From Podospora anserina (lineage: Eukaryota), in NCBI GenBank assembly GCA_017654855.1, contig CM030336.1, positions 4,030,001-4,094,000 of the forward strand: a stretch of 64,000 bases of DNA. Direction: 5' to 3'. Numbering within the stretch: the stretch's first letter is position 1; each line of letters begins with the position of its first letter. This document shows positions 764 to 7,487 of the stretch, piece by piece. The notes under the pieces were generated by a model. The model was not told where the DNA came from. It was given only the letters and a program-made list of their open reading frames with translations, and did not search any database. The position numbers were made by a program, and so were the translations under genes.

Positions 764-2428
764 TGTAGCGGCGGCGGTTTAGCGACGGATAACCGCAGAA
801 GGTATGGGTATTTGCGGACAGGCGCGCGCGCACAAGCGTTCCGTTTAACTCGATGCCAGGATATATCTCGAAGTCGGGATGTATGTATGGGTGGAATAAA
901 AGTATCCAAAAAAGAGCCAGCCAGCCAAGGGGGGGGCGGGGGGTTATTCAAAAAGCCAATATCTCCGAGTGGATGGCATGGCGGATGACCGACCCTATTC
1001 AATATTCAGGAGAGCTATCGCTGCCCCATGGGAAAGGTCAGTAAATGCCAGCTTCTCAGGTGACAAGTGAATAGGAAAGAGCAAGAGGGAAGGCCAGAAC
1101 TCACTTAACCCAAGCCAAGATGTCCCGGAAAAATCATGGAAAAGAGAGCAATGGTCAGAAAGAGGAAGGCGGTTCATCAATCATTCAAGGGTTGTCTGGC
1201 CTGGTGGGTGGGAAAGCGCATGCGTGCCAAGCCGATGGCAAAGCTGCCCCCCTGTCGTCTTGAGGGGAGGGGGGCGTCTGCTTGGTGGTTGGATATTTCT
1301 TGGCATTGGATATGTCTTGCTCCAAACGGCAATCGGACACCTGTTGACTTCCTTGCGTCTTTCTGTTGTGAAGGATGAAGATGGGGGGGGGGGGATACAA
1401 CACTACAGCCGCGCAAATCCTCTGCCGTTTTAACATAACAGATCTTTAGCGGCCAGTTAGGCTACCTCGAGGTTGGGATGAAGCTTTGACATTCCCGTCT
1501 CTACATAACTTGCTTGACTCGGCTGATTCAAGCTGGCCTGGCGTAGATGCAGTATGTCATTCAACCGGTGGCTTTGACGATAGCGGGAATCGATATTAAC
1601 CCGGAGAATAAATAAATCAATTCACCCTCCTCAACACGTCCAGGTTCGTCAGCTTCGGCAATGCAAGGCCGGGAGTTGCCAAGTCACCTCGTCCCACTGA
1701 TCTGATATTGCGGGGTAGTTCCCCGCCATCAAGTTAGCGTCCTGAACTCACGATGCTGACATGCAGCGTTTCTGCTTGAGAGATGGACGCTTTGTTTTGA
1801 TTATGAGCCGGCTGACAAGACAATCATATTGTAAAGGCTCTCACCTAGATTAATACCATGTGGCTCAAGGGGCGAGCTCTTTGTGCAAGCCGAATCCGAG
1901 GCACAGGAACGAATCATACGGCGCTCAGATATCAGACCTTGAACACCGATAGAAACCTCACTCAAGGCAACAGAGATATCTGATGACAATAGATTGCACA
2001 ACGAATCAACTCACTGGATCATTCGAGAACTGCCGTAAACCCTCAGTTGTTCAAGACGATGATCAGGGTCCAGCTCCTGCATCTAGAAACGGAACTGATC
2101 GTCCGCCCACCTCCACAACCAAACTCAAGAACAACCAAGGAAAGCTTGTGCCGACACAACCGGGCCGTTCTCAACATCACCCGCAAAAATATGCCATCAC
2201 AAACAACCAGAGAATTAAATATCAAATCAGGGCTTCAAAAGCACTGCATCAAGTTGGGGGGTATCTAACACTCAAAAGAAACCTCGTTCAGAAACCTTTC
2301 CCTTAAAAAAACCATGGATCCCTCGTAGCGATGCCCGGAATCTACCATGTCCCCAAATTCGCCTATGAACATCTGCCCATGTTGTCCGAGACTTCCAGTC
2401 CCATCCTCCAATCCAACCTGGCGCCTAC

Positions 2429-2845
2429 CTAGTCCATCCGTGCATTCCGCCTCCGGCTCTTCATCCTCCTCGTCTTCCTCCAGCAAACGCATCCACCAAG
2501 ACCCTCATTCCACCAAACAAAAAACTCCCCTTTCTCGATCTCCATCTCACGCTTCAAGAGCCGGAAACGTCTCTTTTCCTCGGTCGAGATCCACATTCGC
2601 TTGCGCCAATCCTCGATCGGATTGCCACGCTTGGCAACTCTGACCTCGGGGGGTTCCCAAACCCCAGGAGTATAGGTATGAGGACTTTGCACCTGGGGCC
2701 TCTCTTGCTTAGGGATATCCTCCATGTCATCGTCCGAGTCACTCTCGGTGTCGCTTTCCACGCGTCTCCCTTCTCTGGTGACGAGTCCAGCGGTGGCTGT
2801 CTGAGTGGGAGGAGTGGCGGCCATTGTCTGATTGGGAGAGGGGTT
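2429..2845 (-). CDS. In-frame open reading frame directly after the TRM10 stop (candidate readthrough/editing extension, or a small separate gene from ATG 2824)
   Basis: After TRM10 TAG the frame continues AAC CCC TCT CCC AAT CAG ACA ATG GCC... for 138 sense codons to TAG at 2429-2431. It has an acidic patch (ESDTESDSDDDMED) and coding-like codons; no family recognised. Confidence 0.45.
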   Translation of the reverse strand, partial: NPSPNQTMAATPPTQTATAGLVTREGRRVESDTESDSDDDMEDIPKQERPQVQSPHTYTPGVWEPPEVRVAKRGNPIEDWRKRMWISTEEKRRFRLLKREMEIEKGEFFVWWNEGLGGCVCWRKTRRMKSRRRNARMD

Positions 2846-4177
2846 CTAATCCATCTCCGGCTTGATCTCAGTGTCGGTCGACTTGTCCGGCTCACCCTCC
2901 TTCTGATCCTCCTTGATATCCTCCTCCTTGACATTCCCCTCGTCATCACCCCCAGCTTGACTCCCACCACCCTCCTTCAGCACACCACCCTTCCGCTTCG
3001 GGATCACCTCCAAAAAGGCCTGGCCCCAGTCACCACACTGCAGCCACTTCCCCATAATCTCCACCACCTGGTTCGTCGTCAAGACAAACCGGCTCTGCAT
3101 GGCCATGAAATCCCCGATCGGCAACTTCGCATGGCGAACCTTGTGTTCTTGCGCTCTCTTGTAGCAAAGACCCTTCTCCCTGTTGCGATCGACCAACCCT
3201 CCAATGATGTACGCGGTCCCTGGTTCGAGTCTGTCGAGGGTATACGGCGAGTCGGAAGTGAGGTAGACAATGTTCTTGTGGACACTGTCCTCCTCGACAT
3301 CCTCGGTCGACTTGTTATCAAACTTCTCATCGAGACTCATGTGAGGGACGTTGCCCGTCTCCTTCGAAGCGACATGATCGGGAAGGTTGTACGCGGTATA
3401 AGGCTGAATAAACTCGTCGATAGCTTGCTGGGCGCAGTCGACAAAGTTGTTTTCGGTAATGATCACATTCTTCCAGTTGAGGTGGGTGTTCTTGAGCTTT
3501 GTCTCAAATCTTTCCTTGAGCTTGCCCCCAAAACCGCTGAGTGACAGATGGGCTTGGTTTTTCTCCTTGCGGTTCATTGCGTACGATCTGGTGAGCTGGC
3601 TCGACAGGGAAATCAGTTCTCCTTCGCGCATGTATTGCTCGAAGTCGCAGTCGATGACAATGGAGATGGGGAGGAAGTTGGGTTCGAGAGGCTTCTTGGT
3701 GGGAATGAGGGCCATTGGGTCGAGTCCTTTCTCGACAGCTTTAGCCATCAACTCCTCCTTCTCTTCTCGACGCTGGGCTTGCTTCTCGTGGCGCTTATCT
3801 TTGCGCTTCTGCTTGCGCTGCTCGGCGTAGGCTTCATAGGCGGCTTGTTTGCGCAACTTCTTGAGCTCGCGCTTGGAGGGACCAGGCTTGACCTCTTCGG
3901 TGGAAGGGGTTTCGGTCGAAGCCGGAGTCTGCTCAGCTTGCTCGGCCGGGATCATGTTGGTATCGATGGCAGCCTCGGAGGGGTTGGCTGGCTGCTCGTC
4001 GTTGTTGACAGAGGGGGTGTTCTTCTTGATGGTTCTGTTATCGAGCTCGCTGACATCGGTGTCGGCCTTGCGCTTGCCATTGGCAGTCGAGAGGTTATTG
4101 GAGTCGCTGGTGGTGGCCAGAGAGTCGGTCATCTCGACGTCCGGTGCGACGGTTTGCGGATTGGTTACGGTAGCCAT
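2846..4177 (-). CDS. TRM10: tRNA (guanine-N1 at position 9) methyltransferase Trm10
   Basis: 443-aa ORF with IVIDCDFEQYM, IVYLTSDSPYTL, YIIGGLVDRNREKG, AKLPIG and VLTTNQVVEIM motifs of the Trm10 SPOUT family. Ends in TAG at 2846-2848. Confidence 0.93.
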   Translation of the reverse strand: MATVTNPQTVAPDVEMTDSLATTSDSNNLSTANGKRKADTDVSELDNRTIKKNTPSVNNDEQPANPSEAAIDTNMIPAEQAEQTPASTETPSTEEVKPGPSKRELKKLRKQAAYEAYAEQRKQKRKDKRHEKQAQRREEKEELMAKAVEKGLDPMALIPTKKPLEPNFLPISIVIDCDFEQYMREGELISLSSQLTRSYAMNRKEKNQAHLSLSGFGGKLKERFETKLKNTHLNWKNVIITENNFVDCAQQAIDEFIQPYTAYNLPDHVASKETGNVPHMSLDEKFDNKSTEDVEEDSVHKNIVYLTSDSPYTLDRLEPGTAYIIGGLVDRNREKGLCYKRAQEHKVRHAKLPIGDFMAMQSRFVLTTNQVVEIMGKWLQCGDWGQAFLEVIPKRKGGVLKEGGGSQAGGDDEGNVKEEDIKEDQKEGEPDKSTDTEIKPEMD

Positions 4178-4495
4178 GTCGCTTGCTACGGGTAGTAGCT
4201 TGACGGGAGGTTTTGTAGCAAAGGGAAACGTAAAGATGGCAGGTGGAATTCCGAGAAAATAGGATGTGAGAACTGGAAAAGACGGTGCTTATATAGTGGT
4301 GGAAGGGTAAATTACAAGAGAAGTGAACAATGGCAAGTAATATTCACTTGGTCTGCAATTGTCAATTCACTTGAGCTGCTCCCGGAGGTGGGGTGGTGAC
4401 CGGAGCTTTAATTTTTTAGCGCAGGACAGTGGCAGAATTACCCCACCACAAGCTGGGGTTACCGGGCGGTGAAGGCTTAGTTGGTTGGTTGGACA

Positions 4496-4531
4496 GCGCG
4501 CTGAGGCGCGTCTTCTTTAATTGAGTCGCGT
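4496..4531. promoter_or_regulatory. MCB-like CGCG elements in the divergent TRM10/MSH2 promoter
   Basis: GCGCGT at 4506-4511 and TCGCGT at 4526-4531 (ACGCGC/ACGCGA on the minus strand), 140-165 nt upstream of the MSH2 ATG. Confidence 0.4.
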
Positions 4532-4670
4532 CTCCCATGACCAGGGGTGGGCAAGTCACCTAAATTGACACTCCCGACATTTTGGTTCCCCATCCATCTC
4601 AACTTCGGGATGTCACCAAAGCCTGTACAACTTTGAGAGTGTACAGAACCAAATCACAGCCACAGCCAAC

Positions 4671-7487
4671 ATGTCTTCCAGACCAGAGCTCAAGGTAATA
4701 CTGACCTTGTCTTCCTCAACTGCTGAACATATCTAACAAAGACACCAACAGGTCGATGATGAGCACGGCTTCATCCGATACTACAAGTCCCTTCCCAAGG
4801 TCGACGAGGACGTGATTCGCATATTCGATCGAGGTGACTGGTACACTGCACACGGAGAAGATGCCAATTTCATCGCGCGCACTGTCTACAAGACCACCTC
4901 GGTTGTCAGACAACTGGGCAAAAATGACCACACCGGCCTGCCATCAGTCACCATGACTGTCACCGTCTTCAGGCAGTTCCTTCGGGAAGCGTTATACAAG
5001 CTGGGAAAGAGAATCGAGATTTATGCCAGCCCCAACGGCCGCATGAACTGGAAGATTGTGAAGCAAGCCTCGCCAGGCAACCTGCAAGATGTCGAGGACG
5101 AACTTGGAGGGCAGTTCGAGGGAGCGCCAGTGATCTTGGCCGTCAAAATCACAGTCAAGGCATCAGAAGGCAGGACGGTTGGCGTGTGCTTTGCCGATGC
5201 CAGCGTAAGAGAGCTCGGTGTCAGCGAGTTTCTCGACAACGATCTGTACTCCAACTTTGAGTCTCTGGTCATTCAACTCGGCGTCAAGGAGTGCCTCATG
5301 CAGATTGACAAGGCAGAGAAAAACAAGGATCCAGAGCTGGCAAAGCTGAGACAAATCCTCGACAGCTGTGGCATTGCCGTTTCGGAGAGACCAGCAGGCG
5401 AGTTTGGCACCAAGGACATTGAACAGGATCTGGCAAGGCTGCTGAAGGACGAGCGGTCTGCGACGTTACTCCCACAGACCGACTTGAAACTTGCTATGGG
5501 CTCAGCAGCTGCTCTGATCAAGTATCTTGGTGTTTTACACGACCCTTCCAACTTTGGACATTATCAGCTCTACCAGCACGACCTTGCCCAGTTCATGAAG
5601 CTTGATGCCGCCGCGCTCAAAGCCCTCAACCTCATGCCCGGTGCCCGGGATGGTGCCAAGACCATGAGTCTGTATGGTCTCTTGAACCACTGCAAGACTC
5701 CTGTTGGTAGCAGGCTGTTGTCTCAATGGTTGAAGCAGCCCCTGATGGACAAGGCCGAGATTGAGAAGCGTCAGCAGCTTGTCGAGGTGTTTGTCAACGA
5801 CACTGAGCTTCGACAGACTATGCAGGAGGAGCACCTCAGGTCTATTCCTGACTTGTACAGGCTATCCAAGCGCTTTCAGCGGAAGAAGGCAACCCTCGAA
5901 GATGTCGTCAGAGCTTACCAGGTCGTCATCCGCCTGCCCGGCTTCCTAGGCACACTCGAGGGAGTGATGGACGAAGCTGCCCGTGACCCCCTCGATGAGG
6001 CTTACACCAACAAACTCCGCGAGCTCTCCAACAGTCTAGTCAAACTCCAAGAAATGGTCGAAACCACCGTCGACCTCGACGCCCTCGAAAACCACGAGTT
6101 CATCATCAAACCCGACTTCGACGACGGCCTCCGCATCATCCGCAAGCGCCTCGACAAGCTCCGCTCAGACATGGACAAGGAATTCTCCGAAGCAGCCAAC
6201 GACCTCGACCAAGAGCGTGACAAGAAGATCTTTCTCGAGAACCACAAAGTCCACGGCTGGTGCATGCGCCTAACCCGGACAGAAGCAAGCTGCATCCGCA
6301 ACAAGTCCCGCTATCAAGAATGCTCAACCCAGAAGAATGGAGTCTACTTCACCACCAAAACCCTCCAAGCCTACCGCCGGGAATTCGACCAGCTCTCCCA
6401 AAACTACAACAGAACCCAATCCGGCCTCGTCAACGAAGTTGTCGGCGTAGCAGCCTCGTACTGCCCCGTTCTCGAAAAGCTAGGCGGCGTCCTCGCCCAT
6501 CTAGACGTGATCGTCTCCCTCGCCCACTGCGCAGAGAACGCCCCCGTCTCCTACGCCCGTCCCAAAATCCACCCACGAGGTCAAGGACAAACAATCCTCA
6601 CCGGAGCCCGCCACCCCTGCATGGAAATGCAAGACGACGTCACCTTCATCACCAACGACGTCTCCCTCACCCGCGACAGTTCTTCCTTCCTGATCATCAC
6701 AGGCCCAAACATGGGCGGCAAGTCAACCTACATCCGCCAGATAGGCGTCATAGCCCTCATGGCACAAATCGGCTCCTTCGTCCCCTGCGAGTCGGCCGAG
6801 CTGACCATCTTTGACTCGATCCTCGCCCGCGTGGGGGCAAGCGACTCGCAACTAAAGGGGGTATCAACCTTTATGGCCGAAATGCTCGAAACAGCCAACA
6901 TTCTCAAGTCAGCCACCTCCGAATCCCTGATTATCATCGACGAGCTAGGCCGCGGAACGTCGACCTACGACGGGTTCGGTCTCGCGTGGGCGATTTCGGA
7001 GCACATAATCCAACAGATCGGGTGTTTTGCCCTGTTTGCGACTCATTTTCATGAGCTGACCGCCCTCGCGGAAAAGTACCCGCAGGTTCAGAACCTGCAT
7101 GTTACGGCGCATATTACGAGCGACAGGGACGTGAAGAGGGAGGTGACGCTGCTGTATAAACTCGCTCCGGGGATCTGCGACCAGAGCTTTGGGATTCATG
7201 TCGCCGAGCTGGTGAGGTTTCCGGACAAGGTTGTCAGGATGGCGAAGCGGAAGGCGGACGAGCTGGAGGATTTTACGAGTAAGCACGAGGCGGGGAGTGT
7301 CAAGTATGGGAAGGGGGATGTGGAGGAGGGGAGCGCGTTGTTGAAGGATGTGCTGGTGAAGTGGAAGGATCAGGTCAAGGGGGGGGGGATGACGAAGCAA
7401 GAAATGGTGGAGAGGTTGAGGGAGCTTGTCAGGAATGATGAGAGGTTGGAGGGGAATCCGTTTTTTCAGAGTGTGAAGGCTTTGTAG
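4671..7487 (+). CDS. MSH2: DNA mismatch repair protein Msh2
   Basis: Exon 1 4671-4694 (MSSRPELK), intron 4695-4751 (GTAATA..CTAAC..CAG), exon 2 4752-7487. Motifs IRIFDRGDWYTAHGEDA, Walker A ITGPNMGGKSTYIRQ, GVSTFMAEMLET, IIIDELGRGTSTYDGFG, ATHFHEL, SFGIHVAE. Confidence 0.97.

Follow-up and report, generated by a model that had tools for sequence, protein, structure and literature searches.

When a gene is followed, directly behind its stop codon and in its own frame, by a second long open reading frame (ORF), the question arises as to whether that stop is always obeyed. This question is raised by TRM10, a tRNA methyltransferase gene, in a stretch of 64,000 nucleotides (nt) of Podospora anserina (GenBank assembly GCA_017654855.1, contig CM030336.1, positions 4,030,001 to 4,094,000; this whole stretch is called the window, and positions are counted from its first letter). 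The UAG stop of the gene lies in the loop of a short hairpin, and the preliminary description of this DNA had proposed that adenosine-to-inosine (A-to-I) editing of the stop could give a C-terminally extended Trm10 in sexual tissue. The reading that we favour, tentatively and as the most probable of several, is that TRM10 terminates normally and that its long 3' region holds a young and effectively untranslated frame, called ORF2 below. It is favoured because the stop is conserved, because ORF2 has no relatives beyond its species complex, appears to change at a near-neutral rate and is truncated in one allele, and because no fused protein is on record in the collections searched and the assembled RNA-like contigs are unedited.

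According to the favoured reading, the intronless TRM10 would encode a protein that ends at the conserved UAG, and its transcription unit would continue for about 610-680 nt beyond this stop. The 3' region would then carry a young frame, found in the P. anserina complex only and weakly constrained or unconstrained, and the fact that this frame is shared with TRM10 would be happenstance. The stop would be unrecoded in the sampled RNA, which would leave the downstream frame outside Trm10, and any editing of the UAG would be a side effect, minor and not selected for, and would not account for the existence of the frame. We infer that ORF2 has no useful level of translation. The features on which the argument turns are the following.

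2846..4177, minus strand: TRM10 coding sequence including the stop, 443 amino acids (aa), tRNA (guanine9-N1)-methyltransferase, intronless, identified by ORF and Pfam
2848-2846, minus strand: UAG with which TRM10 canonically ends; 2847 (T on the plus strand) is the A that would be edited
2835..2858, minus strand: hairpin GGAGAUGG / AUUAGAAC / CCCUCUCC, stem with 7 of 8 base pairs (bp), UAG within the 8-nt loop
2825..2845, minus strand: linker from the TRM10 stop to the next ATG, 21 nt or 7 in-frame codons
2429..2824, minus strand: ORF2, 131 aa plus a TAG stop (2431-2429), in frame with TRM10, start context ACAAUGGCC
2170..2428, minus strand: 3' tail after the ORF2 stop, AT-richer, with a guanine plus cytosine (GC) fraction of 0.46 that drops to 0.40-0.44

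TRM10, its stop codon and the RNA beyond it

The identity of the upstream gene is clear, given that its protein matches the family tRNA_m1G_MT (PF01746) with 98.3 bits against a gathering cut-off of 27.3 (E = 6.3e-28). A score above this cut-off and full-length similarity to Trm10-named proteins are the two marks of Trm10 (SPOUT class), and both were found. The protein is 97-99% identical to the Trm10 proteins of five named species, Podospora comata, P. bellae-mahoneyi, P. pseudoanserina, P. pseudocomata and P. pseudopauciseta, whose names are annotations and not assays, and the next relatives, at 72-86% identity, come from Cercophora samala and Triangularia, the host order being Sordariales. 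All eight Trm10 sequences of the P. anserina species complex are 443 aa long, and the homologous C-terminal position is also found in the more distant relatives C. samala, Triangularia setosa and T. verruculosa. Because the complex and these distant relatives share the end position, the stop appears to be old, and the canonical product ends there.

Beyond the stop, the frame remains open for 138 codons, up to the TAG at 2431-2429, with an ATG at 2824, and a product in which the TRM10 TAG is read as tryptophan would have 582 aa. The preliminary description had given these figures for the open codons, the spacer to the ATG and the recoded product, and all of them were confirmed.

Assemblies of sequencing runs provide the view of the RNA at this locus. 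Four of the 24 listed assembly runs, which carry no label as RNA, were compared with the window, of which X2, X11 and X16, from three studies, are taken as RNA-like, and X17 is DNA-like. This assignment rests on the fact that X16 skips the intron of the neighbouring MSH2-like gene, and that all three lack an intergenic stretch covered by X17, given that most of 1050-1960 is absent from X2, X11 and X16 and present in X17. Each of the three RNA-like runs provides an unbroken contig across the locus.

2170..4537, minus strand: single RNA-like contig of run X11 with TRM10, ORF2 and the 3' tail, no joint
2236-4355, minus strand: single RNA-like contig of run X2 with TRM10, ORF2 and the 3' tail, no joint
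1962-4692, minus strand: RNA-like contig of run X16, merged with MSH2, in which TRM10 and ORF2 follow one another without a joint

These contigs end 610 nt (X2), 676 nt (X11) and 884 nt (X16) past the TRM10 stop, that is, 193, 259 and 467 nt, respectively, past the stop of ORF2. The contigs thereby agree with a TRM10 RNA that reaches 2429, and they continue unbroken through the region around 2800 before which polyadenylation would have told against it. Contigs of this type cannot show the starts, ends or minority variants of an RNA, and two overlapping transcripts would also be merged into one. An intron that removes the TRM10 stop was considered and rejected, given that the three RNA-like contigs have no joint between 2236 and 4355.

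At the candidate position itself, no letter other than the genomic one was found at 2847 in the contigs of X2, X11, X16 and X17, in which minority variants are hidden and the growth stage is unrecorded. Single-base differences between the window and the compared runs, X17 included, occur solely at positions 1274, 1613 and 2235. Since the DNA-like run shares them, they are strain variants. The difference at 2235 is a T>C change (A>G on the mRNA) with a G at -1, which is present in the DNA and is therefore not editing, and the X2 contig ends beside it, at 2236.

An unannotated transcribed stretch that adjoins an annotated gene is a familiar situation in this fungus, for which the consulted sections of PMC9801653 describe 1732 novel transcriptionally active regions, and 3' untranslated regions (UTRs) of up to several kb. 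The stretch behind TRM10 is of this type, and it differs from the regions described in those sections in that it contains a 131-codon ORF that shares the frame of the gene upstream and has a modest codon signature.

Relatives of ORF2 and of the fused protein

The searches for relatives of ORF2 returned little beyond the species complex. Pfam gave no match at E up to 1, either with ORF2 or with the 138-aa extension, and a word-indexed search placed ORF2 in a cluster of three distinct sequences, all derived from Logan: the window's own sequence, which a gene caller had called on 34 Logan contigs, and two variants, P0001 and P0125. The sequence is found in Logan only, and the NCBI protein sets lack it, both for the five named species of the TRM10 cluster and for the window's genome. 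A full phmmer scan of 1.84 billion representatives with ORF2 produced a single match, P0003, no protein of 231-2000 aa matched ORF2, and the ESM Atlas gave no usable match, with a recognition of 1327 against a mark of 2300. P0003 (55 aa, 78% identity, E = 2.8e-16) was considered as a distant homolog and rejected as a conversion artefact of the same DNA, given that changing every C to T in ORF2 codons 77-131 (2432-2596, minus strand) and translating them gives exactly this protein. It seems that assemblies of bisulfite-type libraries have been gene-called, and their converted products can pass as diverged relatives.

The fused protein was sought in the same manner. The exact 582-aa read-through product is absent among about 15 billion proteins, and the best 120 of 1698 Trm10 relatives (320-1021 aa) cover at most 78% of it.

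The two close variants provide a view of how ORF2 has changed. In P0001 the frame is intact, and 9 of its 131 residues differ (6.9%), as against a change of 1-3% in Trm10 within the complex. Read on the codons of the window, these changes fall 3, 5 and 1 times on codon positions 1, 2 and 3, a pattern that would roughly fit unconstrained change; purifying selection, under which position 2 is spared, would give the reverse. The second variant, P0125, shares a 19,528-nt contig with a Trm10 of 99% identity to that of the window, and it follows ORF2 up to residue 102, save for one change, before a frameshift leads to a stop at 105. Because the frame shifts in P0125, the last 29 codons of ORF2 are dispensable in at least one lineage.

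The other reading frames of this region also bear on the frameshift. A 75-aa acidic ORF lies in another frame at 2265-2492 of the minus strand, where it overlaps the end of ORF2 by 64 nt, and it has been gene-called on nine Logan contigs and has two close variants. It was the only one of seven other-frame ORFs looked up that was present in the protein collection, and it served as an indel marker. On the contig of P0125, the neighbouring 73-aa ORF, P0135, differs at its N-terminus, an indication of a second indel in this lineage, a few codons beyond the first.

Conservation of the extension in relatives, which the preliminary description had suggested as a check, was not borne out, in the sense that no relative of it was found outside the P. 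anserina complex. Frameshifts in relatives, which it had named together with a lack of editing as evidence to the contrary, were found in part, in the single close relative that is cut at codon 105. As an independent coding gene, ORF2 showed neither true homologs beyond the closest relatives nor any sign of purifying selection in the phmmer and Atlas searches and the two relatives.

These characteristics resemble those of orphan or de novo small ORFs, given that ORF2 is limited to a young species complex, is disordered, appears to evolve almost neutrally and is truncated in one lineage. The difference is its position directly behind the stop of another gene and in the same frame, which is unusual for an independent gene.

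More distant controls were obtained from a metagenome scan, which provided eight fungal TRM10 loci with 47-58% identity, one of which (L008) runs off before its stop. The stops of the other seven are TGA in four (two of these loci being identical), TAA in two and TAG in one. No hairpin at the stop was found in these seven loci, and the in-frame extensions there are 0-28 codons long.

The stop-codon hairpin, the editing rules and the surroundings

The preliminary description had placed the UAG in the loop of a stem with 7 of 8 bp, and the sequence and the ViennaRNA fold agree on this structure, which a local fold of 46 nt also returned as the minimum free energy (MFE) structure. The MFE of the 24-mer at 2858..2835 is -8.3 kcal/mol, and the hairpin stays in place in the MFE structure when the context is lengthened to 46 nt and to 101 nt. 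For the 24-mer, the z-score is -1.74, with equal folding in 9 of 200 dinucleotide shuffles, and in the two longer contexts it is weaker, at -0.9 and -0.8. Over both strands of the window, a 24-nt MFE of -8.3 or lower is reached at 13 of 865 TAG triplets (1.5%), and two of the 865, the TRM10 site among them, share the geometry and have 7 or more of the 8 pairs. The hairpin is thus moderately unusual. At the protein level, the end of Trm10 reads PEMD in seven of the eight sequences of the complex and PAMD in the eighth, and the replacement of PEMD by PAMD would have to change one paired base in the 5' arm of the hairpin.

Within the Sordariales, Neurospora and Sordaria edit their mRNA. The rules are best described for Fusarium graminearum, where, in the consulted sections of PMC11156358, U is found at -1 in more than 70% of editing sites, with A or G favoured at +1 and +3. 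The consulted sections of PMC11156358, PMC4817773 and PMC13123824 place 62.4% of the sites in hairpin loops, with stabler loops edited more, and report the editing of almost 9% of UAG/UAA triplets. The number of genes with a UAG-to-UGG stop loss is given there as 323 (PMC4817773) and, on re-analysis, as 403 (PMC13123824). The enzyme of fungal mRNA editing is reported in PMC11156358, as far as consulted, to be identical to the tRNA A34 deaminase Tad2/Tad3 (ADAT).

At the TRM10 site, where the UAG is within AUUAGAAC, the base at -1 is U, that at +1 is G and that at +3 is A, and the site falls in a hairpin loop. Because these bases and the loop position match the published rules, as far as the sections cited above give them, the TRM10 UAG may be regarded as a good candidate editing site. 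The second UAG, at 2429-2431 of the minus strand (ACUAGGU), also has U at -1 and G at +1, and its recoding would open about 21 more codons, as counted by eye.

The closest known parallel is the stop-loss editing of Sordariomycetes, as in DBF2 of F. graminearum (PMC13123824, PMC4817773), which, in the sections consulted, shares with TRM10 a UAG in a hairpin loop with U at -1, an in-frame extension that is disordered and poorly conserved, and a Sordariomycete host. The stop-loss tails are described there as disordered and poorly conserved in general, and the Dbf2 extension as a destabilising tail (PMC13123824). The consulted sections of PMC11156358, PMC4817773 and PMC13123824 give extensions of 11-27 aa. 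The TRM10 case differs from that of DBF2, as far as those sections describe the latter, given that its extension has 138 codons, that no edit has been observed, and that the extension has a well-placed AUG of its own and a coding-like signature.

A likeness also exists to the deamination of tRNA A34 by Tad2/Tad3, in that both have a short stem-loop whose loop contains a U-A step, although the predicted TRM10 loop has 8 nt with the A at position 4, whereas that of the tRNA has 7 nt with the A at position 3. The preliminary description had also proposed a match to the anticodon loop of yeast tRNA-Ser(IGA).

The best-ranked literature on P. anserina and A-to-I editing reports no editing sites in Podospora, and the consulted part of a Podospora-focused preprint names only differentially expressed ADAT genes. 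No paper that joins Trm10, A-to-I editing and perithecia was found, and supplementary tables of editing sites may list TRM10 orthologs.

The surroundings of the locus add some further observations. Rfam gave no match at E up to 1 on 1000-4700, and tRNA scans of the window and the fetched loci found no tRNA gene. On the upstream side lies a divergent MSH2-like gene (long ORF 4953..7487), with a 57-nt GT..AG intron at 4693-4749 of the plus strand that is skipped in X16. The TRM10 and MSH2 contigs merge in this run, and the 5' regions of the two genes therefore overlap or abut. On the other side, 2-763 of the minus strand holds the start of the next downstream gene, which has a hydrophobic N-terminal anchor followed by a proline- and lysine-rich stretch before it runs off the window, and which is covered by RNA-like contigs from 1 to about 1014-1049. 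Between this gene and TRM10, at about 1385-1400, the minus strand has a homopolymer of about 11 C (G on the plus strand), at which the DNA-like contigs are interrupted, at 1394/1397, and leave 25 C as a loose end. For this reason, the length of the homopolymer is probably uncertain in the assemblies.

Ordinary termination and its rivals

The favoured reading, ordinary termination, has to contend with a number of observations that weigh against it. An open stretch of 138 codons arises in only 0.2-0.7% of first-order Markov sequences of like composition. The ORF2 frame has a GC fraction at third codon positions (GC3) of 0.64, compared with 0.54 at position 1 and 0.51 at position 2, and a codon log-likelihood, scored against the long ORFs of the window, of 0.176 per codon, where the two alternative frames have -0.13 and -0.07, with positive values in all three thirds of the stretch. 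This score is reached by 0.2% of Markov sequences, with the same share among the open ones, and in 1% of 306 window-frames of unmasked DNA, which served as an empirical null. Counted on synonymous choices only, the codon score has p = 0.010, and the excess of GC3 has p = 0.016. The frame also lacks the codons TTA, CTA and TCA, which is why the codon-aligned antisense frame is open too, and the probability of both strands being open in this way is p = 0.0004. Finally, the tail that follows the ORF2 stop in X2 and X11, of 193-259 nt, is near the published median for a 3'UTR of P. anserina, given in Table 2 of PMC9801653 as 212-239 nt (mean 288-314 nt). Ordinary termination would require the codon signature, the open frame, the hairpin (top 1.5%), the UAG, the shared frame and the position of the 3' end all to be chance.

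The background in the window sets these values in proportion. TRM10 itself scores 0.39-0.42, and intergenic windows have a mean of -0.01 and a maximum of 0.087. Among the window's 19 sense ORFs with 250 aa or more, none continues further past its stop than these 138 codons (median about 14), and 150 open frames of at least 120 codons exist in this GC-rich DNA, most of which overlap real genes. ORF2 ranks 20th among these 150 by its score, and antisense frames of real genes reach up to 0.19. The GC fraction is 0.55-0.60 across the ORF2 frame and declines to 0.40-0.44 only at 2170-2320, and a single-sequence AlphaFold2 model of ORF2 has a predicted local distance difference test (pLDDT) value of 53 and is mostly coil, with one helix at 81-94 and a short strand hairpin. 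ORF2 has a coding-like signal of about 40% of the strength of that of TRM10, which is suggestive and short of proof of translation, because antisense frames of real genes in the window score similarly.

The strongest competitor of ordinary termination is the stop-loss editing put forward in the preliminary description, which we regard as quite possible. In this case, Tad2/Tad3 would deaminate A2847 in the sexual stage, turning UAG into UGG, and yield the 582-aa Trm10 with a disordered tail of 139 residues, which might add a module or, as with Dbf2 in Fusarium, lower the stability of the protein. The mechanism is known within this fungal class, the site fits the published preferences, and the hairpin appears in folds of 24, 46 and 101 nt and stands in the top 1.5% of the TAG triplets of the window. 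The RNA-like contigs also span the whole extension, and editing would offer one explanation for the frame in common with TRM10, the UAG and its hairpin, the coding-like signature and the tail of normal length after the second stop. The poor conservation of ORF2 is no bar, given that stop-loss tails are reported to be poorly conserved in the consulted sections of PMC13123824. The site, the hairpin and the RNA coverage thus supply the prerequisites for an extended Trm10, but neither the edit nor the product appears, given that the contigs of the three RNA-like runs, in which minority variants would be hidden, show no T>C at 2847, and no fused protein is found in the collections searched. Against this proposal are also the truncation of the tail by indels in one close relative and the paired base of the 5' arm that the species with PAMD would have to alter. 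The seven distant TRM10 loci lack a bias towards TAG, the hairpin and a long extension, and the best-ranked literature on Podospora and A-to-I editing reports no Podospora sites. The extensions described in the consulted sections of the Fusarium papers have 11-27 aa, and not 138. A bolder version, in which Tad2/Tad3 would edit the TRM10 stop in fruiting bodies by way of a hairpin resembling an anticodon loop, and would thereby produce a stage-gated fusion to a selected, codon-adapted 138-residue module of the Podospora lineage, appears distinctly unlikely.

It is also conceivable, although unlikely, that ORF2 is an independent young orphan gene with its own mRNA, starting inside the 3' end of TRM10, in which case the frame, the UAG and the hairpin would be coincidental. 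A at -3 together with G at +4 is a good fungal start context, and ACAAUGGCC has both, in a frame that also has a modest coding-like signature and a 3' tail of typical length, and that was gene-called on the 34 Logan contigs. The gap of 21 nt, on the other hand, would put the promoter and the 5'UTR inside TRM10, and ORF2 has no homolog outside the complex, an apparently near-neutral rate, a truncated allele, low Atlas recognition and a structure model that is mostly coil. It has never been annotated in the NCBI genomes of the complex, and an independent gene would explain neither the hairpin (1.5%) nor the frame in common with TRM10 (1 in 3).

The least likely reading, and a very improbable one, is that the RNA is unchanged and that ribosomes either read through the UAG or, on a dicistronic mRNA, reinitiate at the AUG that lies 21 nt further downstream. 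The presence of both ORFs on one contig, their matching frames and the short spacer would fit either process. Contexts that promote readthrough include UGA-CUA and UAG-CARYYA, and the AAC CCC that follows the TRM10 stop is unlike these. The known fungal cases of readthrough are motivated by signals of peroxisomal type, and the end of the extension has no such signal. Reinitiation, for its part, is inefficient after an ORF of 443 codons under the established rules of scanning, and no fused protein is on record in the collections searched for either process. We retain ordinary termination as the preferred reading, with probabilities for ordinary termination, stop-loss editing and an independent gene that are close.

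The locus provides two warnings for similar cases, which are that open frames of the length of ORF2 are common in GC-rich fungal DNA, and that C-to-T-converted (bisulfite-type) translations in large protein collections pass as distant homologs. If the UAG is unedited, TRM10 would be an ordinary gene with a long 3' region that contains an orphan ORF. If it is edited, the extension would be among the longest stop-loss extensions described, and a rare one in having a codon signature and a start codon of its own, and the locus would offer a case, open to test, in which RNA editing joins a young ORF to an old enzyme.

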